A DNA stretch of 40,727 nt from an uncultured Candidatus Saccharibacteria bacterium (GTDB lineage: Bacteria; Patescibacteriota; Saccharimonadia; Saccharimonadales; UBA4665), in assembly GCA_964469755.1 (NCBI GenBank), contig CAYXYX010000001.1, forward strand, positions 1 through 40,727, read 5' to 3'. A model generated the notes under the pieces. It did not search any database. It worked only from the letters and a program-made list of their open reading frames with translations, and was not told the DNA's origin. Shown piece after piece: positions 15,858 to 35,096 of this stretch; the first letter of the stretch is position 1; every line of letters starts with the position of its first letter. The position numbers and the translations under genes were made by a program.

Positions 15858-16192
15858 TGACCAAACGTCAAGACGCTAGTACTGGTCAAATTGTTGATGA
15901 CGGTCGGCAGGAAGCTGTTACTAAGGGGCCGAGAATGGTTGATGGCAAACAGGTCATGGCACTTAAAATCTATTCGCCGTTTAAAGTATATTTTGATGAA
16001 GATACATTTAGTATATCTGCCGAAAATGCCACCGGCCCGTTTGATATTTTGCCTAGACACCATAACTTTATGTCATTGCTTGCTGCCTGCGAATTACGGG
16101 TCGTGGCACCAACCGGCGAAAAGCGGATTAGAATTAGCGGCGGGCTGATATTGGTTGAATCCGACAGAGTAAAAGTGTTTTTAGACGTTTAG
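15857..16192 (+). CDS. atpC: F1 ATP synthase epsilon subunit (beta-sandwich domain only)
   Basis: 111 aa with a TAATG overlap onto the atpD stop. It has 'GPFDILPRHHNFMSLL' and 'ISGGLILVESDRVKVFLD', and no C-terminal helical hairpin. Confidence 0.75.
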
Positions 16193-17202
16193 CCAATTAC
16201 AAAGTAATCAAAGCCAAAACCGGCATTATCGGGGGGCGTGTTGCTGCTGCAAATACTAAAGCTGGTATTCGAGCGGTTAACATAAAAGTTAACTTCACCT
16301 GCCGCTGAGCCAACGGGGGTTACGATCACGTGCGGTGTGCTGGCGTATTTGGTAGTAAAGCTAACAGTAATAAAACAGCCGGCATTTGGACTCGAACCAG
16401 TATTTACTGTTATTGATCCTGCTGTATCACTACCACTGACGCTGGCCGTGCCACCGCTACCAACGGCTGTACCTGGGCTGCGTCCTGGCGTGCCACCGCT
16501 GGCAGTTATGTGGCGCGTGAGCGACAAGTCACCATTCAATAAGAAACTGTTGGTAGATATTTGTGGCGCCGAAACGGCTCCACTAAAGGTTCCAGCCCCA
16601 CCAACCTGTAATGACTGGGCAATAGTCTCTTGGCCTTGTACGGCCACATTGCCAGTGACTGCCAAATTTTTACTTACTGTAGCCTGACCTAAGTTAGCTG
16701 TGTCGCTTACATTAATGTTTGGCAAATTAAGGCTGCCACCAAGTTGTAAGTTACCGGCAATCTCTAGGTCGCTTCGGGCAAGCACTTTACCCGCAAAGAC
16801 TGCACTGCCTTGCACGCTCAACACTTGGCCACTGCTACCAATACTGGCATCACTTTTAGCAAGTTGATCGAGTGTGTCCTGGGATAGTGAAGTGGTGCTA
16901 ATGGTACCCGTGCTGCTCTTCCTTTTACTATAGTTGTAGCTAAACAGGACAATCAGACCGGCCACAACTAAGACGAATATGAAGAGTAAAAGGTAAATGT
17001 TGAAGCTGAAAAGCTTGTTAATAAGCCGTTTGCTAAAAGGCGGCTTTGGCGCTGGGCCAACAGGGATAGGATTAGCGTTTTCAGCTGATATAACGCCTGT
17101 TTTTTGGGCGGCGCTAGTCTGATCCTGGACAATTGTTGTCGGAGCATCCAATGACTCGAGGTCGGTGTCTTCGGCGGGGGCTGCCGGTGGTTTTTGATCC
17201 AT
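16189..17202 (-). CDS. Bitopic surface protein: Pro/Ala-rich cytoplasmic N-terminus, one TM helix, a beta-helix-like repeat region and a C-terminal beta-sandwich domain
   Basis: The TM helix is 'LFSFNIYLLLFIFVLVVAGLIVLF'. It is followed by degenerate repeats '...VQGSAVFAGKVLARSDLEIAGNLQLGGSLNL...LAVTGNVAVQGQETIAQSLQVGGAGTFSGAV...'. I prefer the ATG at 17202 (a CATAAT/TAATAT -10 lies 7-9 nt upstream) over the TTG at 17241. Confidence 0.6.
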   Translation of the reverse strand: MDQKPPAAPAEDTDLESLDAPTTIVQDQTSAAQKTGVISAENANPIPVGPAPKPPFSKRLINKLFSFNIYLLLFIFVLVVAGLIVLFSYNYSKRKSSTGTISTTSLSQDTLDQLAKSDASIGSSGQVLSVQGSAVFAGKVLARSDLEIAGNLQLGGSLNLPNINVSDTANLGQATVSKNLAVTGNVAVQGQETIAQSLQVGGAGTFSGAVSAPQISTNSFLLNGDLSLTRHITASGGTPGRSPGTAVGSGGTASVSGSDTAGSITVNTGSSPNAGCFITVSFTTKYASTPHVIVTPVGSAAGEVNFYVNRSNTSFSICSSNTPPDNAGFGFDYFVIG

Positions 17203-17305
17203 ACTCTGTATATTATGCTTACGCTTGGTCTTATAATACAAGAAATACGATTAAAGCGTAAGCGGGCTGGCATTTTGAGGGTCAATTTGCAATACTGAAA
17301 CAAGC

Positions 17306-18052
17306 ATGAGGGCAAAACAAAAACTGGTTACGGCTACATTGCTAGGGCTTCTAGCTACGTTTGGTATGGGCGGTCTTGTATTAGCCAACACTGTGCCACA
17401 GGCTACATCGAGTAGCTATGGAGTTAACGAGGTGTTTTTTGGAAGTGGCGGTTCGTTGCACGATTGTTCAGCGTCTTATTGTGCTAAAACATCGCTTGGT
17501 GAAACCGGAGTTGGGAATACATCAAGCACGAACTATCAAGCTCAAGGTGGCTTTAACACCGATAGGCAGCCATATCTACAGTTCGTAGTTAGCAACACAA
17601 ACGTAGACATTGGTACATTGAGCAGTTCTAGTACTAAAACGGCTACCGCAACCTTTTCAGTCAAAAGCTATTTGGCTAGCGGCTACGTGGTCAAGCAGAC
17701 ATCGCCCGGACCAACCAATGGATCGTACGTAATGGCTGGACTCGCCACGCCAACTGCATCGGCATCAGGCACAGAGCAATTTGGCATTAACTTGGTGGCA
17801 AATACGAGCCCTGCCACTTTTGGTGCCGTGCCGACTCAGGCACCTGACTCAACCTTTAGTCATGGGCAAGTTTCGGCTGGCTATAATACGGCCAACCTCT
17901 TTAAATATGTTCAAAATGACTCTATAGCCTATTCGGATGTCAGTAGTGGCACGACGAACTACACAATTTCATATATATTCAATGTTTCTAACCTGACTGC
18001 TGGCGGGACCTACACCTTGCGTCACGTGCTGGTGGCAACCTCTACCTTCTAG
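17306..18052 (+). CDS. Secreted paralog P1 of the surface locus (short form, module B only)
   Basis: Signal peptide, 2 Cys, 'GTEQFGINLVANTSP', and the C-terminus 'AGGTYTLRHVLVATSTF*'. It shares the C-terminal half architecture with P2-P5. Confidence 0.7.
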   Translation: MRAKQKLVTATLLGLLATFGMGGLVLANTVPQATSSSYGVNEVFFGSGGSLHDCSASYCAKTSLGETGVGNTSSTNYQAQGGFNTDRQPYLQFVVSNTNVDIGTLSSSSTKTATATFSVKSYLASGYVVKQTSPGPTNGSYVMAGLATPTASASGTEQFGINLVANTSPATFGAVPTQAPDSTFSHGQVSAGYNTANLFKYVQNDSIAYSDVSSGTTNYTISYIFNVSNLTAGGTYTLRHVLVATSTF

Positions 18053-18148
18053 GCCTTGATATATGTCACGCTCTTGAGACTTGCAAACAGATACCGCTAG
18101 TGGTAAGTTTTATATAAGAACCTTGTGCCTTGGTGGTTATGTGAGCCC

Positions 18149-19372
18149 ATGAAATATATACAAAAAGTAAAGCTATACTTTATAGGAAAGCTCCCGCTAA
18201 TATTGGCGGGAGAGTTGTTAGTGGCGTTATCACTTGCCGTATTATTACCGGGGCAAGGTCTAGCTGGACAATTGACTGGCCGATCCCTACAGTTGTCCGA
18301 CTCCGCTCCCTCTACAGCAACGACCGGTGTTGGTAGTGGTACTAACGTAGCATTTAAGCTTACCTTCCTCCCAAGTGCCGCGGCTTCCGTTGGTGGTATT
18401 GTGGTGGACTTTTGTAGTAATAGCGCCCTGGTTGGTGATTCGTGCACCGCCCCAACTGGGCTGAACGTCAACCGTTCAACGACTGCAGTGGCGGCGCAAA
18501 CTGCCAACTGTGGCGCCAACGCCTTTGCCACAACCACTACTGACGCCACGAACAACCGTATAATTATTACCCGTGCTTCACCTCAATCCATTTCCTTATC
18601 CTGTGCAGTCGATATCGGCAATGGTACTACCACCGGCATTACTAATCCCTCAACCCTTGGCACCTTCTACGCTCGTATTTATACGTATGCTACAGCAGCT
18701 GCCGCCAACGCTCACGTTACAGCGACCCCTACCGGTTATATTGATAGTGGTAGTATTGCTCTGAGTACGGTCAGCGTCATAACCATCACGGCTCGCGTTG
18801 CAGAAACCTTGATCTTCTGTGCCTCGGCCGCCTCACCATCGGCAAATTGTGGCGGTTTAACTACGCCCACCATTAGCCTTGGGCATGGCACGGTCAAGTC
18901 ACTTGACGGCTCCGCTGTCGATACAGGCATCATATATACTCAATTGTCAACGAACGCTACGAGCGGAGCGTTTGTTCGTATGCATAATAGTAACGGCACG
19001 TGCGGAGGCTTAAGCCTCGACGGTGGTGCAAGCTGTGGCATTCCGCCAGCTGGTTCGGGTGCAGCGACGGCCCCGGGAGCGGCGCTGGTCATTGGTAATA
19101 CTAGTTCTGTGCCCGCCTTTGGCCTCAATGTACCAACATCTGGTGGTGTTGCTTCCCAAGCGCCGTACGCTAGTGCCGCGGGCTACTATGGCATGGACAC
19201 GACTACAGCTGGCCAAAATGTTACTACTACCTATGGCGGGAACGTCCTTACGGCGTCAGCACCGGTTAACAACGTCACCAATACCTGGACTTTTGCAGCC
19301 ACGGCCACTAACATCGTTCCAGCCGGTTTATATAGTGCTAATATTTCGCTCATAGCTGTCGGCAGATTTTAG
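18149..19372 (+). CDS. Secreted paralog P2 (two-module, 8 Cys)
   Basis: I chose the ATG at 18149 (MKYIQKV..., signal peptide ...LLPGQGLAG). The mature N-terminus is 'QLTGRSLQLSDSAPS'. Other shared motifs are 'DFCSNSALVGDSCTAPTGL', 'ITNPSTLGTFYARIYTY' and the C-terminus 'PAGLYSANISLIAVGRF*'. Confidence 0.75.
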   Translation: MKYIQKVKLYFIGKLPLILAGELLVALSLAVLLPGQGLAGQLTGRSLQLSDSAPSTATTGVGSGTNVAFKLTFLPSAAASVGGIVVDFCSNSALVGDSCTAPTGLNVNRSTTAVAAQTANCGANAFATTTTDATNNRIIITRASPQSISLSCAVDIGNGTTTGITNPSTLGTFYARIYTYATAAAANAHVTATPTGYIDSGSIALSTVSVITITARVAETLIFCASAASPSANCGGLTTPTISLGHGTVKSLDGSAVDTGIIYTQLSTNATSGAFVRMHNSNGTCGGLSLDGGASCGIPPAGSGAATAPGAALVIGNTSSVPAFGLNVPTSGGVASQAPYASAAGYYGMDTTTAGQNVTTTYGGNVLTASAPVNNVTNTWTFAATATNIVPAGLYSANISLIAVGRF

Positions 19373-19394
19373 TGTAAAAAATACAGCAGTAAAG

Positions 19395-19423
19395 TTGCAT
19401 AAGCATTTTTGAAGTGGTACTAT
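19395..19423 (+). promoter_or_regulatory. Promoter TTGCAT-N17-(TGg)TACTAT for P3, followed by an A-rich leader with no SD
   Basis: TTGCAT at 19395-19400 and TACTAT at 19418-19423, with TG at -15/-14. The leader 19424-19463 contains AAAATCAAAAATCAAATCAAAAAG. Confidence 0.55.
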
Positions 19424-19463
19424 CTCTTTAGGTAAAGCAAAAATCAAAAATCAAATCAAAAAG

Positions 19464-20708
19464 ATGCAAGCTAAACAAACAATCAAGAATTTCTTATTCA
19501 GAGGCACATCATCGGTAGTAGCCGCGCAGTTTGTTGCGGTTTTGGTTTTTTCATCTCTACTGGCATTTCAAGGTTCAGCTTCGGCTGGTCAGTTAACGAA
19601 CCGATCATTACAGTTTTCTGACTCCGCGCCCTCAGGTGGCTCCATCACTAGCGGTGTTGGTAGCGGTACCAGGGTGGCTATGAAGCTATCACTCACTCCA
19701 AGTGCTAGTGCCGCCGTTGGCGGTATAGTCATCGACTTCTGTAGCAACAGCGCACTCGTCGGTGATAGCTGTACGGCTCCAACTGGCCTGAACGTTAACC
19801 GTGCAACCACTGCCGTTAATGCCACAATGGTAGGTGGCTGTGGTGCAACCGCCTTCACCACCTATACTTCTGATGCCACCAACAACCGTATTATTATTAC
19901 TCGCGCGACTGCTAACAATATTACTGCCGCTTGTGCGATTGATATTGGTGACGGTATTCCCGTTACCGGTAACGGTATTACCAATCCGTCAACACTCGGT
20001 ACTTTCTATGCCCGCATTTACACCTATGCCACTGCAGCCGCAGCCCAAGGCCACACCACTGCCTCACCTACTGGTTATGTCGATAGTGGTAGCCTCGCTT
20101 TGACCACTGTCAGTGTTATAACTGTTACCGCTCGTGTCCAGGAAATCCTGATCTTTTGTGCATCGGCTGCCTCACCTACCTCGAGTTGTGGTGGCTTAAC
20201 TACGCCTGCAATTAGCCTGGGGCACAACAGTCCAAAGATTCTTGACGGCTCTGCTGTCGATACTGGTGTTGTCTATACCCAGCTGTCAACAAACGCAGCC
20301 AGTGGGGCAACGGTACGCATACATAATAGTAACGGAACTTGTGGTGGCTTAAGTCTCGATGGCGGTACGACCTGTGGTATCCCACCAGCAGGCTCGGGCG
20401 CAGCTACTGCGCCTGGTGCGGCGCTGGCAATTGGTTCCTCTGGTGGCGCAGCTTTTGGCTTAAACGTTCCAACCTCTGGCGCTGTCACTTCCCAAGCACC
20501 GTACGCTAGTGCCGCCGGCTATTATGGAATGGACACGACAACGGCCAATGCAAACGCTACCACGACTTACGGTAGTACCGTTCTTGCAGCAGCAGCACCG
20601 GTTAACAACGTCACCAATACCTGGACCTTTGCAGCCACAGCAAGTAACGTCACGCCAGCCGGTCTTTACGCAGCCAATATTGCTACGATAGCAACGGGTA
20701 ACTTTTAA
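19464..20708 (+). CDS. Secreted paralog P3 (two-module, 8 Cys); close duplicate of P2
   Basis: 414 aa with a signal peptide ending ...GSASAG. It carries 'QLTNRSLQFSDSAPS' and the same Cys pattern and motifs as P2, and ends 'PAGLYAANIATIATGNF*'. Confidence 0.8.
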   Translation: MQAKQTIKNFLFRGTSSVVAAQFVAVLVFSSLLAFQGSASAGQLTNRSLQFSDSAPSGGSITSGVGSGTRVAMKLSLTPSASAAVGGIVIDFCSNSALVGDSCTAPTGLNVNRATTAVNATMVGGCGATAFTTYTSDATNNRIIITRATANNITAACAIDIGDGIPVTGNGITNPSTLGTFYARIYTYATAAAAQGHTTASPTGYVDSGSLALTTVSVITVTARVQEILIFCASAASPTSSCGGLTTPAISLGHNSPKILDGSAVDTGVVYTQLSTNAASGATVRIHNSNGTCGGLSLDGGTTCGIPPAGSGAATAPGAALAIGSSGGAAFGLNVPTSGAVTSQAPYASAAGYYGMDTTTANANATTTYGSTVLAAAAPVNNVTNTWTFAATASNVTPAGLYAANIATIATGNF

Positions 20709-20765
20709 TGAAGTACGTTATTAGAAACGATGACAAATATAGGGGACTACTCAAGCGTAAAATAC

Positions 20766-20795
20766 TTGCACTACGCAACATAAGCGTGATACGAT
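20766..20795 (+). promoter_or_regulatory. Promoter TTGCAC-N18-(TGa)TACGAT for P4
   Basis: TTGCAC at 20766-20771 and TACGAT at 20790-20795. An A-rich leader without an SD runs to the ATG at 20831. Confidence 0.4.
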
Positions 20796-20830
20796 CAAAT
20801 TACAGCAATAGTAAAACAAATAACTCAACC

Positions 20831-22105
20831 ATGAATATAACCCTCCAAGACATAATCCAATCCATCAAGCGACCAGCTTACTTCTTAGCATCATTAGCTA
20901 TGATTTTTGCAGCCAGTTCAGGCGTAGTTGAAGCCGCCGCAGTTGGTGGCCAAGTGCAATACCGATCAATCAAAATGAGTGATAACGGTGTTAGCGGTGG
21001 GACAATCACTACCGGCGTTGGTAGTGGTACAGCGGTTAGCTACCGCGTGACATTCCGCGCCGCAACTAGCTACACCATTAAGGGTATAGTGTTGGACTTT
21101 TGTGCTGGTACCGGTGGTACGCCGTTTATTGGCGACTCAACCTGTGCTGCGCCTACTGACTTTACCGTTGGGGCTACGCCAACTATTGACACCTCCGACT
21201 ATGTCGTCGGTGCATCAACTACCTCGGGTCTTGGGACTACCGCTAACTGGACGCCAACCTCAATTAACTCTGGTCAAACCTTTGAAATGACTAACTCAAC
21301 CGGCTTTGCCCTAACAAGTGGAACTGATTATACCTTTGAGATTAGCGGCATCACCAACCCAAGTGATCTTGGGACCTTCTATTCTCGTCTCGTAACCTAC
21401 ATAAGTGACACTGGTAGTATTAGCAGTTACGCCCACGGTACCCCTGGCACCTACCAGGACTACGGTGGTTTTGCCCTCAGTACTGCAGAGATCGTGCAAG
21501 TTACGGCTAAGGTCCAAGAAACAATGACGTTCTGCGTGTCTGGCACCACCACCCCACCAACCTTTACGGCGCCTACTGATTGCACGACGGCTGTTCCTGC
21601 AGCAATTACCTTAGGTCACGGCACGAACAATACATTGGATGGTACGGCAATCGATACAAATACGGTGTATACATACGTATCTACCAATGCCCTACATGGC
21701 GTCTCAATTCGGGCGCACAACAGCAATGTCTGTGGTGGTCTTAGTACCGACAGTGGAACGACTTGTGCGATTCCAGCAGTTGGTTCGGGAGCTGGTATTA
21801 TTGGCACTATCGTTGCCGGTACGGCGAGCTTTGGAATGCGTTGTCACGACAGCACCGGTGGTACCGGTTCAGTAGCCTGTGATGCTAACTACTTATACGA
21901 TGCTTTGAACACAGATAACTACGGCATGGACTCGACAACTAGTGGAACAAACGTCACGACTACCTACGGTGACGTGGTAGCGGCTTCGACAGCACCAATT
22001 AGCGGTGTAACTAACACTTACGATTTTGCAGCTACTGCTAGTGATACCACTCCAGCCGGTATTTACACTGCCAACTTCGCCCTTGTAGCTACTGGTACCT
22101 TCTAG
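20831..22105 (+). CDS. Secreted paralog P4 (two-module, 8 Cys)
   Basis: I chose the ATG at 20831 (MNITLQDII..., signal ...SSGVVEAAA). Motifs are 'GQVQYRSIKMSDNGVSGG', 'DFCAG...GDSTCAAPTDF', 'ITNPSDLGTFYSRLVTY' and the C-terminus 'PAGIYTANFALVATGTF*'. Confidence 0.75.
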   Translation: MNITLQDIIQSIKRPAYFLASLAMIFAASSGVVEAAAVGGQVQYRSIKMSDNGVSGGTITTGVGSGTAVSYRVTFRAATSYTIKGIVLDFCAGTGGTPFIGDSTCAAPTDFTVGATPTIDTSDYVVGASTTSGLGTTANWTPTSINSGQTFEMTNSTGFALTSGTDYTFEISGITNPSDLGTFYSRLVTYISDTGSISSYAHGTPGTYQDYGGFALSTAEIVQVTAKVQETMTFCVSGTTTPPTFTAPTDCTTAVPAAITLGHGTNNTLDGTAIDTNTVYTYVSTNALHGVSIRAHNSNVCGGLSTDSGTTCAIPAVGSGAGIIGTIVAGTASFGMRCHDSTGGTGSVACDANYLYDALNTDNYGMDSTTSGTNVTTTYGDVVAASTAPISGVTNTYDFAATASDTTPAGIYTANFALVATGTF

Positions 22106-22116
22106 GGCAGCCATGA

Positions 22117-23178
22117 ATGGCCCAGTCACTTCTAAAGAATCAGTCCGTTAAACGATCAGCAATTTTTGTGCTGGTGGCTGTATTTATGGCGCTTGGCGTC
22201 CTGAACACCATACAAGCCGATGGCCAGCGCTTACTCAATCGCTCGCTTAAGCTAAATAATAATCAGGCAGGCAAAACAGCTTTGTATAGTTTTGGGTTTC
22301 AGCCACCCAGCCTTGGCGTCATACAGACTATCTTATTTGAGGTCTGTGCCAACGATCCGTATCCGGGTAAACCTTGCGTGCCACCAGTTGGTTTTGATGC
22401 CTCGGCTGCAACATTAGTTAGCCAGACTGGTGATGTTGGGTTCAGTATGTCGCCACAGTCTACGGCTAATCGTATGGTAATTGAACGTTCGCCCTTCGCT
22501 TCAGATGGCGTGCCAAACAGTTATGTTTTTGATAACGTCGTTAACCCCAGTAACGACGGTTCATATTATGTGCGTATACAGACCTTTCCGGATGGTGACA
22601 TGAATGGTGTGGCCAATTATTATGGAGGCATCGCTTTTGCCATCACGAGGTTGGTGACTATTAACGCTGTGGTACCGCCATATCTGCTATTTTGCGTCGG
22701 CATAACTATAAGCGGTTACGATTGCGAAAATGTTGACGGGAATTACGTCAATTTTGGTGAGTTCGGCAGTCGGCAGGCCAGTCAAGGCGATACCCAAATG
22801 CTGGCTGCCAGTAACGCTAAGGATGGCTATAATATTCGAATACTTGGTAATACGCTGACCTCTGGTACTAACGCTATCCCTGCGATTACTAGTAATGACA
22901 TTTCACGGCCGGGCGTCAGTCAGTTTGGGTTAAACTTACGGGCAAATAGTTCACCACAAGGGGGGATTGATGTGACTGGTTTTGGCACTGGTCTACCGTC
23001 AGCGAACTACAGCCAGATTAACTTTTACCGATTTAACTCTGGTGACATTGTGGCATCATCGACCGCCCCAGACAAAGCACGCAAATTCACGGCCACTTAC
23101 GTGGTTAACATCCAAAAGGATCAGGCACCCGGCGTGTATGTTAGTACGCTAACCTATATAGCGCTGGGTAATTTTTAA
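22117..23178 (+). CDS. Secreted paralog P5 (two-module, 4 Cys)
   Basis: Signal peptide, then 'GQRLLNRSLKLNNNQAG', 'EVCANDPYPGKPCVPPVGF', 'VVNPSNDGSYYVRIQTF', 'GVSQFGLNLRANSSP' and the C-terminus 'APGVYVSTLTYIALGNF*'. It starts 11 nt after P4. Confidence 0.75.
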   Translation: MAQSLLKNQSVKRSAIFVLVAVFMALGVLNTIQADGQRLLNRSLKLNNNQAGKTALYSFGFQPPSLGVIQTILFEVCANDPYPGKPCVPPVGFDASAATLVSQTGDVGFSMSPQSTANRMVIERSPFASDGVPNSYVFDNVVNPSNDGSYYVRIQTFPDGDMNGVANYYGGIAFAITRLVTINAVVPPYLLFCVGITISGYDCENVDGNYVNFGEFGSRQASQGDTQMLAASNAKDGYNIRILGNTLTSGTNAIPAITSNDISRPGVSQFGLNLRANSSPQGGIDVTGFGTGLPSANYSQINFYRFNSGDIVASSTAPDKARKFTATYVVNIQKDQAPGVYVSTLTYIALGNF

Positions 23179-23217
23179 CGTGTAATAAGTGTCACATTAG
23201 AATAATGCAACAGGGGC

Positions 23218-23246
23218 TTGGCAAAGCGCTAATGGTTTGGTACTAT
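23218..23246 (+). promoter_or_regulatory. Promoter TTGGCA-N17-(TGg)TACTAT upstream of the tail-anchored two-domain protein
   Basis: TTGGCA at 23218-23223 and TACTAT at 23241-23246. It has the same TGgTACTAT -10 element as the P3 promoter. Confidence 0.5.
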
Positions 23247-23275
23247 GAGCTCAAACTTAAGTGGGGAAATCAAAC

Positions 23276-24343
23276 ATGGTTCGGAACAAATTGGTACGCA
23301 TAATCAGCTTGGTGGTTGCTGTAGGGGTGCTATCGACGACGACAGCATTTGCTGCTACCGCTAAAAAAACTACTGTCGTGGCAACGCCACAGCCTAACCC
23401 AGCGGCCGGCTCTGCGACCGACAACGGTCTTAAAGTATCGCCAGTTCGTTCCGATTTAACGATTCCCGATGGGACTACCCAAACAGTGGTCGTGACCGTC
23501 ACTAACGTTACATCTGGCGTTTCGGCATACCAAGTACAAGTTAACGACTTTACCGCCAGCAGCGACGAAAGTGGTCAACCACAAATCTTACTCGATGCAA
23601 CAAAGTACGCACCATCACACAGCCTTAAGCGCCTCGTAGGACCAGTTCCAAACGTTGTTCTACAACCTGGAGAATCAAAAAACATTAGTGTGCCTATTAC
23701 GGTACCTAAGGGTTACACCGCTGGGGGCTACTACGGTGCCATCCGTTTCGCTCCCCACACCGACAGCGATGCCGCTAACAAAAACGTTACCCTTTCCGCT
23801 AGCGTTGGTTCACTAGTGCTCGTTACTGTTCCTGGTGACATCAATGAACAGGTGAGCGTGGCTAGCCTTGATGCCCGTAAGGCAGTTCCAGCCAACCAAG
23901 TTGATGTTGCTAGCACCTTCTTCTTTAACCACAAGAACATTAACGGTGTTGTCCGCTTCCAAAACGGTGGCGATGTCCAAGAGCAGCCTTTTGGTAAGCT
24001 AACCGTAAAGAACTGGCGCGGAAAAGTGCTGGCTACTTACGAAATCAACAACGAAACCCCTCGCGGCAACGTGCTTCCCGACAGTATTCGTAAGTTCACC
24101 ATTCCTCTGACCTCCCTTGGAAAATTTGGTAAGTTCACCATGGTTGGTAACTTTGGCTACGGTAACTCCGGGCAACTCATAACCGCGCAGAGTACCTTCT
24201 ATGTCATTCCTTTGTACATCATTGCGCTAGTAGGTTTTCTGATTGCCGGTATTGTATACCTGATCTTCGGCCTACCACGTACCGTTAAGTGGTACAACCG
24301 CCGTGTTGTCTCTCGCTCTAAGAAGAGTAGCCGCAAGCGCTAA
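23276..24343 (+). CDS. Tail-anchored surface protein with two beta-sandwich-like domains (architecture like DUF916/DUF3324 CscA proteins); putative assembly or anchor factor
   Basis: The ATG at 23276 has GGGGA about 9 nt upstream. A signal peptide is followed by 'LKVSPVRSDLTIPDGTTQTVVVTVTNVTSG...' and 'GGYYGAIRF', then a second domain ('VRFQNGGDVQEQPFGKLTVKNW...'). A C-terminal TM helix 'VIPLYIIALVGFLIAGIVYLIFGL' and a basic tail 'SRSKKSSRKR' close the protein. It has no Cys. Confidence 0.65.
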   Translation: MVRNKLVRIISLVVAVGVLSTTTAFAATAKKTTVVATPQPNPAAGSATDNGLKVSPVRSDLTIPDGTTQTVVVTVTNVTSGVSAYQVQVNDFTASSDESGQPQILLDATKYAPSHSLKRLVGPVPNVVLQPGESKNISVPITVPKGYTAGGYYGAIRFAPHTDSDAANKNVTLSASVGSLVLVTVPGDINEQVSVASLDARKAVPANQVDVASTFFFNHKNINGVVRFQNGGDVQEQPFGKLTVKNWRGKVLATYEINNETPRGNVLPDSIRKFTIPLTSLGKFGKFTMVGNFGYGNSGQLITAQSTFYVIPLYIIALVGFLIAGIVYLIFGLPRTVKWYNRRVVSRSKKSSRKR

Positions 24344-24361
24344 CATCATTATGGTAGATTG

Positions 24362-24391
24362 GAAGGACCCGGCCGCTTGCGCTCGGGTCCT
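24362..24391 (+). terminator. Hairpin AAGGACCCG-N12-CGGGTCCTT after the two-domain gene (possible partial terminator)
   Basis: A 9-bp GC-rich perfect stem, but only a weak T-rich tail (TTACTCTATT). Confidence 0.35.
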
Positions 24392-24406
24392 TACTCTATT
24401 AAGCTA

Positions 24407-25312
24407 ATGGTTAAGATGTCTCTCAAGCGGATCAAACGAGTTCTAGGCGTAACTAGCCTTGCAATGCTGGTATTAGCTGGTCAGTTTTGCACAACCGCAT
24501 TGGCGGCCACCAATACGTCCCAAAACCCTCAGAATGGCTCTGTAGGGCTTGAGGGCACTATATCTACTGCTCCACCAACGCGTGGTGCTACCATTGCAAC
24601 ACCAGGCAACGGCGCCAGCTTTTCTACGACGCCCATTACCGTAGCCGGTTTATGTCCGACCGGCGTATTGGTCAAAATCTTCGATAACAACGTGTTCGTA
24701 GGCGCGGTACTCTGTAATAATGGCAGCTACACCTTACAAATTGACTTGTTTAGCGGCGCTAACCAGCTGGTCGCTCGGGTGTACGATGCACTGGACCAGA
24801 CTGGGCCAGATTCAAACGTTGTCACCGTGACGTTTAATGACGCGCAATTTGCCCAGTTTGGCTCACGAATCACGCTAACCAGTATTTACGCCCGCCGTGG
24901 CGCTTACCCTGGCGATCCGTTAAGCTGGCCTATTATTTTAAGTGGCGGGATCGGCCCGTACGCCATTAGTATTGACTGGGGTGACGGCTCGTCACCGCAA
25001 CTCATGAGCCAGGGTGTAGCCGGCAGCTTTGACATTAAGCACACCTACACCAACGCTGGCTACTACAAGATGGTCGTCCGCGCCACCGACAAAAACGGTA
25101 TAACCGCCTTCTTGCAGCTGGTTGCTGTGGCCAACGGCGCCACTCAAGCCGGCAATACCGACAAAAACGGTAGTTCATCCCAACTCAAAACCATCGTCCT
25201 TTGGTGGCCCGTGTTGCTTATCCTACCTCTGTTATTCGTAGCCTTCTGGCTCGGTCGTCGCCACGAACTCTACGTCCTTCGTAAAGAACTTGACAGCGCC
25301 AAACAACAGTAA
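24407..25312 (+). CDS. Surface protein with an Ig-like domain, a PKD-like domain and a C-terminal TM anchor
   Basis: Signal peptide, then 'ITVAGLCPTGVLVKIFDNNVFVGAVLCNNGSYTLQ' (an Ig-like module with a Cys pair). The PKD-type motif is 'YAISIDWGDGSS...HTYTNAGYYKMVVRATDKNG'. The C-terminal TM helix is 'IVLWWPVLLILPLLFVAFWLG'. The start could be 24407 or 24416. Confidence 0.7.
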   Translation: MVKMSLKRIKRVLGVTSLAMLVLAGQFCTTALAATNTSQNPQNGSVGLEGTISTAPPTRGATIATPGNGASFSTTPITVAGLCPTGVLVKIFDNNVFVGAVLCNNGSYTLQIDLFSGANQLVARVYDALDQTGPDSNVVTVTFNDAQFAQFGSRITLTSIYARRGAYPGDPLSWPIILSGGIGPYAISIDWGDGSSPQLMSQGVAGSFDIKHTYTNAGYYKMVVRATDKNGITAFLQLVAVANGATQAGNTDKNGSSSQLKTIVLWWPVLLILPLLFVAFWLGRRHELYVLRKELDSAKQQ

Positions 25313-32542: not shown

Positions 32543-33694
32543 ATGCCAGCATCAAAAAATAAAAAACCAGTTGTAAAAAAAGCGCCCTCGCGACGAGTGG
32601 TGTCTTCAAGGCGCACCAAACGCCGTTCGGTGATGTCGCCACACTTGGTGCACCCGCGGCATACCTTTAGATTAGTACCGCATATCCATACAAGTTATCC
32701 TATGCTGGCTTACATGCTGCTATTGGTGGGTATTTTTAGCATCGGATGGACCAATTTTGTATCTGGCGACAGCTTTAGCGTAAGAGCCAAAATTCCAGCC
32801 GAGCCTTTGTTGGTGGCCGCCCAAATTACGGGGCCTAAAGATGGTGAAGTAGTCGACGATAAAGTCATTACCGTGACTGGTACCTGCCCGTATCATTCCT
32901 ACGTTAGGCTGTACCGCAACGATAGCTTTACGGGTATAGCACTGTGTCAGCCGACTGGTGAGTGGTCAATTCAAACCATGCTTATACTTGGTGAAAACAT
33001 GCTGTTTGCCCAAGATTATAATATTACCGATGATATTGGGCCGGTATCTGATCCAATATCTGTCACGAACCGACCGACGCCGGCACCTGTCAAAGTGGAT
33101 CCTTCGGCTGCGCGCTTAACTAATCCCGAAACTACTACCGATGCGACAACAATTGCCGCCGAAAAAGCGGCTAAAAATCCGTTAATATTAACCAGCGACT
33201 TTTTGTACAAAGGCGTATACGCCGGTGATCCATTTACCCAAACACTCAAATTAAGTGGTGGTAAAGCTCCCTATGCTGTCAGTATCGACTGGGGTGACGG
33301 CAGCTCGGAACTCAGCAGTCACGCTGAAGCCGGTGACTTTACCTTGACGCATACTTATGCACGGCCAAGTGATAATGGTAGTAGTTATGTGATTAAGGTA
33401 ACTGCCACAGATAATGATGGCCAAATTGCCTTGTTCCAAACCATAGCAATCATAACCTCACAGCAAACTGGTACCGGGGCATCTGGCTTGCCAAATGGCG
33501 GTAGTGGTACGGCAACCGATGTGAACAGTAATAGTGCTAGCGGATCAACACCGATTGAAAGATTCTGGAAAGTTGCCACTCCAGTTTATGTCGTGACGGT
33601 GGTGTCAGTTGCCAGTTTTTGGCTCGGACAGCATCAAGAAATCCAGTTATTACACCGCCAGGCGGTTCGAATGCACCGCAAGCGGCCACTCTAA
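32543..33694 (+). CDS. Ig-like plus PKD-like surface protein with N- and C-terminal TM segments; paralog of 24407-25312
   Basis: It has a basic N-terminus and a TM helix. The Ig-like module is 'ITVTGTCPYHSYVRLYRNDSFTGIALCQPTGEWSIQ'. The PKD motif is 'YAVSIDWGDGSS...HTYARPSDNGSSYVIKVTATDNDG'. The C-terminal TM helix is 'VATPVYVVTVVSVASFWLG'. Confidence 0.7.
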   Translation: MPASKNKKPVVKKAPSRRVVSSRRTKRRSVMSPHLVHPRHTFRLVPHIHTSYPMLAYMLLLVGIFSIGWTNFVSGDSFSVRAKIPAEPLLVAAQITGPKDGEVVDDKVITVTGTCPYHSYVRLYRNDSFTGIALCQPTGEWSIQTMLILGENMLFAQDYNITDDIGPVSDPISVTNRPTPAPVKVDPSAARLTNPETTTDATTIAAEKAAKNPLILTSDFLYKGVYAGDPFTQTLKLSGGKAPYAVSIDWGDGSSELSSHAEAGDFTLTHTYARPSDNGSSYVIKVTATDNDGQIALFQTIAIITSQQTGTGASGLPNGGSGTATDVNSNSASGSTPIERFWKVATPVYVVTVVSVASFWLGQHQEIQLLHRQAVRMHRKRPL

Positions 33695-33764: not shown

Positions 33765-35096
33765 ATGCTTGATAAATTTAAAGCCACCTCACAATCGTTT
33801 GCCAAGCAGGCAGTTTCATCCGCCAAAGGTACGGTTAAATCCGCCCGCACCAAAGTTAAAAAAGGTGGCGATCAGCATTTAGTAGCTCTCGACATCGGTA
33901 CGGAATTTGTTAAGGCCCTAATTGGGCATGTGAAACCCGACGGTACGATTGAGATTATTGGCGTTGGGCGTCAGCACCAGGCTTTGACTGATATGCAAGC
34001 CGGTGCCATCGCCGACATAGCCGGCGTTGTCGATAACTGCGATAAAGCCCTGAGTGAAGCCGAAGAGCAAGCTGGTGTCAGCGTTCGTCAAGCCATTATC
34101 GGTATTGCCGGTGAACTGGTCAAAGGTACTACGACCACAGTGCGGGTCAGTCGCAAAGACTCAGCTAAGCAATTAGATGTCGGCGAGATGGAAACGATTA
34201 TTCACTTAGTACAAGAACGAGCCGAAAAGCGTGCTAAAACGGAACTAGCCTGGGAGCTTGGCGGCAAGGAAGTCGCCGTGCGTCTAGTTAACAGCGCGTT
34301 GGTAAGTATCGAAATTGACGGCTATCCAGTGACGAACCCAATTGGTTTTCAGGGAAAAGACGTGGTAGTGCAGCTTTACACCGCTTTTGCGCCGATGATT
34401 CACATTGGGGCGCTCGAAAAGACCGCCCAGGAGCTGGATCTTGATCTGTTGGCAGTCGCTGCTGAGCCATTTGCCGTATCGCGAGCGGTGATTGGTGACA
34501 CGCCAAACCAATCACTTAGCGCAATTTTGATGGACGTTGGTGGCGGTACGACTGATATTGCCGTTATTAACGACGGAGGGGTGCAGGGAACTAAAATGTT
34601 CGGCATTGGCGGCCGAGCCTACACCCGCGCCATCGAACGTGATTTGAGCGTGGACTTTGATGTCGCTGAAGAATTAAAGATAGGTCTAAGCAGTAATAAA
34701 ATACCGGCCCAAAAACGTCCGTCCATCGAAACTGCGCTTGGCAAAACCGCCGATGTTTGGATTAGCGGTATTGAACTGGCCCTCGCTGAGTTTCCGAAGC
34801 TTGATCACTTGCCGCACCGCATGTTCCTTTGTGGTGGTGGTTCCAGTCTAGACATGCTTATGAACCGGCTAGAAGGTAGCACTTGGTACAAGCAACTGCC
34901 GTTCACCCGAAAGCCATCAGTGCACTATATTCGCCCTGAACAGGTGGTTGGTATTACCGATAGTACGGGTAAAGTGAATGACCACACATTTATTACGGCC
35001 ATGGGATTGCTGCGTGTCGGATTAGATACGCTGCAGCTTGGCGGTAGCGGTGGTGGTACAATTCGTGAGAAACTAGATAGGATGTTAAGCGTTTAG
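33765..35096 (+). CDS. ftsA: Actin-like cell division ATPase FtsA
   Basis: 443 aa. It has 'LVALDIGTEFVKALIG', 'MDVGGGTTDIAV', 'AEELKI' and 'LCGGGSSL', plus a short amphipathic C-terminus. A PilM-type assignment is less likely but not excluded. Confidence 0.75.
   Translation: MLDKFKATSQSFAKQAVSSAKGTVKSARTKVKKGGDQHLVALDIGTEFVKALIGHVKPDGTIEIIGVGRQHQALTDMQAGAIADIAGVVDNCDKALSEAEEQAGVSVRQAIIGIAGELVKGTTTTVRVSRKDSAKQLDVGEMETIIHLVQERAEKRAKTELAWELGGKEVAVRLVNSALVSIEIDGYPVTNPIGFQGKDVVVQLYTAFAPMIHIGALEKTAQELDLDLLAVAAEPFAVSRAVIGDTPNQSLSAILMDVGGGTTDIAVINDGGVQGTKMFGIGGRAYTRAIERDLSVDFDVAEELKIGLSSNKIPAQKRPSIETALGKTADVWISGIELALAEFPKLDHLPHRMFLCGGGSSLDMLMNRLEGSTWYKQLPFTRKPSVHYIRPEQVVGITDSTGKVNDHTFITAMGLLRVGLDTLQLGGSGGGTIREKLDRMLSV

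Follow-up and report, generated by a model that had tools for sequence, protein, structure and literature searches.

A pam pilus operon of a wastewater Saccharimonadia bacterium in which the inter-domain linker, rather than the conserved N-terminal motif, is the probable donor strand

The window analysed here, a stretch of 40,727 nucleotides from an uncultured Candidatus Saccharibacteria bacterium (GenBank assembly GCA_964469755.1, contig CAYXYX010000001.1), encodes five paralogous proteins (P1-P5) followed by open reading frames (ORFs) of 360 and 317 amino acids, all on one strand. The results indicated with good confidence that positions 17306-25312 are the pam operon of a wastewater Saccharimonadia bacterium, a pilus operon of the type described from ultrasmall bacteria of the candidate phyla radiation (CPR), and that the strand passed between its subunits is most likely the one that links the two pilin domains. 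The original prediction, made from the sequence, was that a short motif at the mature N-terminus mediates polymerisation by strand exchange. Strand exchange itself was supported by cryo-electron microscopy (cryo-EM) of homologues, but the donor strand had probably been misassigned. The names PamA, PamB, PamC, PamD, PamE, PamT and PamR are those of a 2026 preprint on Ca. Mycosynbacter amalyticus (Troman et al., bioRxiv 10.64898/2026.03.03.709456). The structure of the filament and the donation of the linker are taken from that work; family membership, conservation, the secondary structure of the monomer and the covariation partners come from the present analysis. The operon is known here from its genes, and by analogy its pilins would use the same linker-donation mechanism as their homologues.

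In M. amalyticus, cryo-EM of PamA and PamB filaments at 2.8 and 3.3-3.6 Å revealed that homologous pilins join by donor-strand exchange in which each subunit donates its inter-domain linker, with a rise of 51-52 Å per two-domain subunit (bioRxiv 10.64898/2026.03.03.709456). Such a rise would fit an axial repeat of a single domain, as it should be when subunits are bridged by the linker and not by the N-terminus. The AlphaFold2 (AF2) monomer model of P3 was all-β, with a predicted local distance difference test score (pLDDT) of 90.6 and a predicted template modelling score (pTM) of 0.66. It consisted of an N-terminal domain (residues ~42-215), a linker (216-228) and a C-terminal domain (229-414), with strands in the regions 44-215 and 229-412. 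Residues 216-228 (VSVITVTARVQEI), lying between strand 207-215 and the first strand of the C-terminal domain (229-234), had no partner in this model (DSSP "-"), and the N-terminal motif formed a confident strand at residues 44-51 (pLDDT 87-95). Mean-field direct coupling analysis (DCA) was run on 195 sequences and repeated on 325 (effective numbers, Meff, 159 and 280), covering ~710 strand-length diagonals. The top partner of the linker was the antiparallel stretch 397-409, which is the C-terminal strand (z 3.9-5.0), a contact absent from the monomer model. The motif paired best with the antiparallel stretch 72-80, which is strand B of the domain it belongs to (z 5.6 and 5.0; L49-L75 and N46-T78), and its third-ranked partner was the parallel stretch 206-214, which is strand I, the last strand of the N-terminal domain (z 3.4-3.6). 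The covariation with the linker supported a place of the C-terminal strand along the acceptor groove, whereas the motif, which pairs best within its own domain, was not supported as the donor.

The sequences of the two candidate strands pointed in the same direction. The P3 linker, with the pattern I-x-I/V-x-A-x-V and an invariant E227, was among the most conserved stretches of the alignment. The N-terminal strand of PamR, V-x-L-x-G-x-I, resembled the linker form I-x-I-x-A-x-V (hydrophobic, hydrophobic, small, hydrophobic) and not the motif; the linker and the PamR strand have four hydrophobic positions each, and the motif has two. Similarity between P1 and P5 in BLASTP opened at PYLQFVVS (residue 89 of P1) and PYLLFCVG (residue 188 of P5), right behind the P5 linker. 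In P5, the motif is separated from strand B by at most ~8 residues, so that it cannot leave its own domain. The analysis gives independent covariation support for linker donation from several hundred homologues, and the donor strand is most likely the linker between the pilin domains, not the N-terminal motif.

Several points weigh against this assignment. The claim of linker donation leans on a preprint and on indirect sequence evidence, and one supplementary legend of the preprint speaks of a "donated N-terminal linker", an ambiguous wording (bioRxiv 10.64898/2026.03.03.709456). The z-scores were moderate, and covariation alone cannot split intra-subunit from inter-subunit contacts. The partner of strand 44-51 was derived from DCA and not read off the AF2 model. 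An AF2 model of concatenated PamT and P2 was uninformative, with the PamT half unfolded (pLDDT <50) and the linker still unpaired. In addition, P2-P4 reached 21-40 bits against the Pam pilin C-terminal domain, under the cutoff of 55; the CPR_Pam_pilin_C match had an E value of 2.7e-4 for P2, below cutoff, and 3e-10 for P4.

Membership of the pilin family was nevertheless indicated by profile comparisons. P1 matched the NCBIfam PamT equivalog NF058579 with 297.6 bits (cutoff 240), and P1 and P5 matched the Pam pilin C-terminal domain NF058581 with 149 and 151.6 bits, respectively. In hhalign, PamT scored 99.9% against the P5 family and 97% against the major pilins (P2-P4), and P5 scored 100% against the major pilins over the full length; BLASTP between P5 and the major pilins gave 2e-14. 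These alignments show a predicted pilin domain common to the PamT, P5 and major-pilin families. Close homologues of P3 numbered 308, all from Saccharibacteria/Patescibacteria assemblies, and a search with the P3-homologue profile returned 1405 clusters at 50% identity. One protein of 934 residues matched the major-pilin profile over residues 570-934 (E 6e-80) and possibly represents a Pam pilin fused to a large region on its N-terminal side. Searches of PDB sequences with P3, P5 and the PamT profile found no PamA or PamB entry and no other hit of note. When the P3 model was compared with PDB structures in Foldseek, the matches were only generic tandem immunoglobulin (Ig) ones with template modelling (TM) scores of ~0.2; among them were the chaperone-usher two-domain adhesins CfaE (6k73_D), CupB6 (5cyl_F) and PapG (6cd2_B), with E values of ~1e-4 but TM scores of ~0.2.

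Judged by their identity of 74%, with the nearest other homologue at 59%, P2 and P3 are a recent tandem duplication. P2-P4 have four Cys pairs; in P3, three pairs are conserved in the family, and the extra pair of P2 and P3 (C126/C157 of P3) is not kept across it. The ORF of P4 opens with an ATG that overlaps the stop codon of P3 (TAATG) and adds 41 residues ahead of the signal peptide (20708-20830); the P4 start is probably Met42 at nt 20831. P5 occupies the pamE position of M. amalyticus and is a single-copy gene directly upstream of the chaperone in most related operons, with 73 P5-like proteins across the 78 related loci described below. P1 is composed of a signal peptide, an N-terminal segment of ~60 residues with one Cys pair, and the Pam pilin C-terminal domain; it has neither the N-terminal domain nor the linker strand.

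Reading the DNA and a script both bore out the motif and its coordinates. P2-P5 carry it right after the signal peptide, with the consensus Q-x3-R-S-[IL]-x-[LMF]-[SN], and its absence from P1 was confirmed. R47 (P3 numbering) was invariant in 98 of 98 P3 homologues, and Q43, S48, I49, S52, D53, S54 and S57 were each kept in at least 84 of the 98. In the 78 loci, a strict form of the motif was found in 58 of 90 major pilins, 17 of 73 P5-like proteins, none of 66 PamT-like proteins and one of 1498 background ORFs; these counts, together with the conservation in homologues, mean that the motif is not due to chance. Its core had been described as a strand of alternating hydrophobic residues. A strand is indeed predicted, but the hydrophobic positions are only I/L49 and M/L/F51. 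The C-termini AVGRF, ATGNF, ATGTF and ALGNF (P2-P5 in order) and ATSTF (P1) were also as first read. All five paralogs end in G-x-Y-x10-[F/Y], and the Gly at -14, the Tyr at -12 and the terminal Phe or Tyr were near-universal in all three classes (~225 of 229 Pam-type proteins).

The motif is probably strand A of the subunit's own N-terminal sandwich, starting at the mature N-terminus. The DCA couplings S54-V216, P56-L178 and S57-S176 placed the end of the motif, together with the Gly-rich loop behind it, at the donor-strand root. The second-ranked partner of strand A (44-52) was the parallel strand 279-287 of the C-terminal domain (z 4.4), with Q50-R285 in the top 25 pairs. This coupling suggests a contact with a C-terminal domain, possibly that of a neighbouring subunit, and such a contact of the polar face would explain why the motif is conserved across paralogs that must co-polymerise. 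The conservation of the motif would be best explained by its place at the donor-strand root, on the neighbour-docking face of the N-terminal domain. As a tentative addition to this explanation, the motif may have a dual role, in which strand A also docks onto the C-terminal domain of the preceding subunit through its polar face (R47, S48, Q50 and S52), so that paralogs could co-polymerise in any order. The Q50-R285 pair and the seating of the motif end at the linker root are consistent with the dual role. The pTM of 0.66 despite the pLDDT of 90.6 suggests in the same sense that, within a chain, the packing of the two domains is not rigid, and the preprint reports that the N-terminal domain enlarges the inter-subunit interface and that conservation peaks near the donated linker (bioRxiv 10.64898/2026.03.03.709456). 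However, the statistics are weak, the contact between strand A and 279-287 could be intra-subunit, the invariant Arg yields no covariation signal, and folding of the sandwich could by itself account for the conservation.

With the linker as donor, assembly would proceed as follows. P2-P5 would be exported by Sec and cleaved after A-x-A, and each would fold into an N-terminal β-sandwich and a C-terminal incomplete Ig-like domain. The linker (216-227 of P3) would insert antiparallel into the preceding subunit, beside its C-terminal G-x-Y...F strand. The motif, as strand A, would lie between strand B (antiparallel) and the last strand of the N-terminal domain (parallel), which continues into the linker. 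P2, P3 and P4 would be paralogous major pilins at the PamA position, and P5 a PamE-like base pilin. PamT, with an acceptor domain only, would cap the distal end, and PamR would provide a final linker-like strand and the membrane anchor. P1 had been proposed as a cap or terminator. The first part fits, in that P1 is a PamT equivalog and would be a distal cap and initiator, able to accept but not to donate a strand; the terminator role would belong to PamR. In the preprint, the tip pilin PamT has a single domain and "lacked a linker strand", and the terminator PamR, tethered to the membrane, places its N-terminal strand in PamE (bioRxiv 10.64898/2026.03.03.709456). The 317-residue ORF matched the PamR equivalog NF058578 with 414 bits (cutoff 300), and its start is probably Met17 (nt 24407) and not the TTG at 24359. 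A second PamR-like ORF of 383 residues was found at 32543-33694 (+), with a match to NF058578 (E 1.4e-54) below cutoff, a basic N-terminal tail and transmembrane helices at both the N-terminus and the C-terminus; it adjoins an ftsA-like gene (33765-35096), and many related loci have a similar ORF 4-6 kb downstream of pamR.

The 360-residue ORF at the PamD position is the chaperone candidate, composed of a signal peptide, a DUF916/WxLIP_PGBD Ig-like domain, a second β domain, a transmembrane helix at the C-terminus and a basic tail. PamC and PamD were described as transmembrane-anchored chaperones, and WxL is not mentioned in the preprint (bioRxiv 10.64898/2026.03.03.709456). The protein matched Pfam PF06030 (WxLIP_PGBD) with 34 bits (cutoff 27.3), and 43 of 43 orthologues matched this family; hhalign against WxLIP of E. 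faecium gave 92%, and the PDB entry of EfmWxLIP1 was matched with an E value of 0.011. At the level of these profile matches, the chaperone is a member of the DUF916/WxLIP family of Firmicute WxL clusters. NCBI names for its orthologues already read "DUF916 domain-containing protein", and DUF3324 was not detected in its second domain. The most conserved stretch, L-[AS]-[AG]-S-V-G-S-L-[IV]-L-[VL]-x-V-P-G, lies just past the first Ig-like domain and is a candidate for the strand that complements the pilin groove. The letters S-V-G-(S)-L are common to this stretch (23792-23836) and the PamR strand GSVGLEGTIS.

WxL clusters encode a small WxL protein, a large WxL protein and WxLIP (DUF916-DUF3324-transmembrane helix), and AF2 predicted that a WxLIP strand completes the WxL β-sandwich (Hassan et al. 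2023, PMC10599100). The Pam operon resembles them in the Pfam family of the chaperone's first domain, in the C-terminal transmembrane anchor, and in one small single-domain protein accompanied by larger ones that carry the shared domain C-terminally. It differs in that Pam pilins have no Trp-x-Leu motifs and that WxL proteins are described as peptidoglycan-bound, not filamentous. The shared DUF916 domain and the shared parts list would be accounted for if Pam pili and Firmicute WxL clusters were two branches of one usher-less superfamily with a transmembrane-anchored chaperone, a possibility that we regard as doubtful. If true, WxL proteins, long called adhesins that bind the wall non-covalently, would be subunits that undergo strand complementation or even polymerise, and the motif would be a docking face for co-polymerising paralogous pilins. 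Pfam WxL gave no match in P1-P5 or in 55 PamT homologues, and six WxL proteins of Firmicutes stayed below 10% in hhalign when compared with the families of PamT, P5 and the major pilins. Patterns that look alike to the eye in WxL proteins and in the C-terminal domains of Pam (V-x-N-T-N-x-x-[FI]-G; G-[WY]-x-[LV]; A-G-x-Y-T-A) were not confirmed by hhalign (<10%), and homology of the pilin domains is not claimed.

The membership of the chaperone in DUF916/WxLIP_PGBD and the parallel list of a small protein, large proteins and an anchored WxLIP could also mean that in this organism P1-P5 are not filament subunits at all, and instead sit at the wall as surface proteins that a WxLIP-like partner holds in place, as has been suggested for the WxL clusters of Firmicutes. 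This is very unlikely, as orthologous products form filaments in M. amalyticus by cryo-EM (bioRxiv 10.64898/2026.03.03.709456), P1 and the 317-residue ORF match the PamT and PamR equivalogs, the linker covaries with the C-terminal strand, and the pilins have no detectable sequence similarity to WxL domains. A free N-terminal extension, with the motif entering the subunit that follows in the manner of chaperone-usher, TasA or archaeal fibres, would agree with a highly conserved motif right after the cleavage site that is absent from P1, with the legend wording quoted above, and with the second-best covariation partner of the motif in the C-terminal domain. It is very unlikely. The motif lies ~1-5 residues past the predicted cleavage site and pairs within its own domain, with strands B and I as partners and a short hairpin in P5; it has only two hydrophobic positions and is a confident strand in the monomer model, in which the linker is the unpaired element. 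The donor-like strand of PamR resembles the linker, the main text of the preprint names the inter-domain linker as donor, and 51-52 Å is too short for two domains in series (bioRxiv 10.64898/2026.03.03.709456). A role of the motif as a propeptide or as a sorting signal that is cut off once the protein is exported has only its position behind the signal peptide in its favour. It is most improbable, as the motif is predicted to be an ordered strand, shows covariation with the core of the N-terminal domain (L49-L75 and F51-F181) and is accompanied by no second cleavage motif and no sortase or LPXTG signal.

The coordinates of the operon and its strands are collected in Table 1. The order P1, P2-P4, P5, chaperone, PamR agrees with pamT-pamA-pamE-(pamD)-pamR of M. 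amalyticus, for which the supplement gives the accession order pamB, pamR, (pamD), pamE, pamA, pamT (bioRxiv 10.64898/2026.03.03.709456). F1 ATP synthase genes lie upstream of the pilin ORFs and mnmA lies downstream. The related loci were 78 Saccharibacteria loci from species-representative genomes, found with an alignment of 22 sequences; the set does not include M. amalyticus. The same operon was present in ~70 of the Saccharibacteria loci, with a common layout of PamT, one to three major pilins at the P2-P3 position, a PamE-like pilin, one chaperone and PamR. Runs of wastewater metagenomes contain near-identical sequence to positions 17306-23178, the best of them with 80% of the sampled words; 50% of the words were found in one viral-fraction metagenome, and the share in freshwater metagenomes was low. 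At 16189-17241 (-), a divergently transcribed gene encodes a membrane protein of 350 residues with a repetitive, β-rich C-terminal part and a weak Bactofilin match (E 0.0018, below cutoff). It is probably the "tail fibre-like protein" that the preprint names as a conserved neighbour of the pam operon (bioRxiv 10.64898/2026.03.03.709456). Weak Pfam matches to DUF2534, DUF2808, Bactofilin and PapC_C were under the cutoff and were disregarded.

Table 1. Features of the pam operon and proposed strands (positions in the window)
Feature	Position	Strand	Remarks
P1, PamT, single-domain tip pilin, 248 aa	17306..18052	+	NCBIfam NF058579 CPR_pilus_PamT
P2, major two-domain pilin, 407 aa counted from the ATG at 18149	18149..19372	+	
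P2 motif GQLTGRSLQLSDSAPS	18266..18313	+	probable strand A of N-terminal domain, begins at mature N-terminus
P2 linker VSVITITARVAE	18770..18805	+	proposed donor strand
P3, major two-domain pilin, 414 aa	19464..20708	+	reference for residue numbering
P3 motif GQLTNRSLQFSDSAPS, residues 42-57	19587..19634	+	predicted strand 44-51
P3 linker VSVITVTARVQE, residues 216-227	20109..20144	+	proposed donor strand
P3 44-52 vs 279-287	19593-19619 vs 20298-20324	+	covariation
P3 C-terminal strand PAGLYAANIATIATGNF (G400, Y402, F414)	20655..20705	+	proposed groove-lining acceptor strand
P4, larger major pilin	ORF 20708..22105	+	
P4 motif GQVQYRSIKMSDNGVS	20948..20995	+	
P4 linker AEIVQVTAKVQE	21485..21520	+	
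P4 C-terminal strand	22052..22102	+	
P5, PamE-like pilin, 353 aa	22117..23178	+	two Cys pairs
P5 motif GQRLLNRSLKLNNNQA	22222..22269	+	
P5 linker TRLVTINAVVPP	22645..22680	+	
P5 C-terminal strand	23125..23175	+	
DUF916 chaperone candidate at PamD position, 360 aa	23261..24343	+	
Chaperone stretch LSASVGSLVLVTVPG	23792..23836	+	most conserved; candidate G1-like complementing strand
Chaperone C-terminal transmembrane helix	24212..24274	+	read from sequence
PamR, RbmA-like terminator/anchor, 317 aa	24359..25312	+	
PamR N-terminal strand GSVGLEGTIS	24536..24565	+	G-S-V-G-L-[QE]-G-T-I conserved in 69 orthologues
PamR C-terminal transmembrane helix	25196..25255	+	read from sequence

Since the description of the Pam system dates from 2026 and NCBIfam already has models for it, the finding for the most part recovers, from sequence alone, polymerisation by strand exchange. 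What was added here is the corrected donor strand, the common layout of the operon in Saccharibacteria, and the tie between the Pam chaperone and the DUF916/WxLIP family. The residual interest lies in the motif with its invariant Arg and in the WxLIP connection, which could tie a pilus specific to CPR bacteria to a surface system that is widespread in Gram-positives and poorly understood.

Among known fibres, TasA-type and archaeal ones have β-rich secreted subunits and strand complementation in common with Pam, but those donate an N-terminal strand, which in Pam is internal to its own domain. There was no Pfam or PDB sequence match to them and only a weak fold match to TLP-1b and BslA, and the operon is not one of a TasA-type fibre. 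The chaperone-usher pili (Pap/Fim) are similar in the proposed donor-strand exchange into a putative incomplete Ig-like domain, in an accept-only tip and in a chaperone thought to complement the groove. A further likeness is the conserved C-terminal strand, which in chaperone-usher pilins, too, carries a Gly 14 residues before the end and closes with an aromatic residue. Unlike these pili, Pam has an internal donor strand, the linker, in place of an N-terminal extension, an extra N-terminal domain per subunit, an extended and not coiled filament, and neither usher nor outer membrane; its chaperone is membrane-anchored and matches DUF916, not the PapD families of Pfam. No usher or PapD match was found in Pfam or NCBIfam among the scanned ORFs of the window, apart from a chance-level PapC_C match (E 0.079) in a different protein. 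The operon would work like chaperone-usher pili but is not a member of that class. Compared with Pam of M. amalyticus, it has three tandem major paralogs of 41-47 kDa in place of one PamA of 55 kDa, four Cys pairs in P2-P4 (three of them family-conserved) against the two reported for PamA, and one chaperone, with no second pamB-pamC module in the 40.7-kb window. The two are alike in the PamT and PamR equivalogs, the pilin C-terminal domain, the two-domain pilins with a linker and the transmembrane-anchored chaperone, as well as in the gene order, the ATP synthase and tail-fibre-like neighbours and the wastewater habitat.

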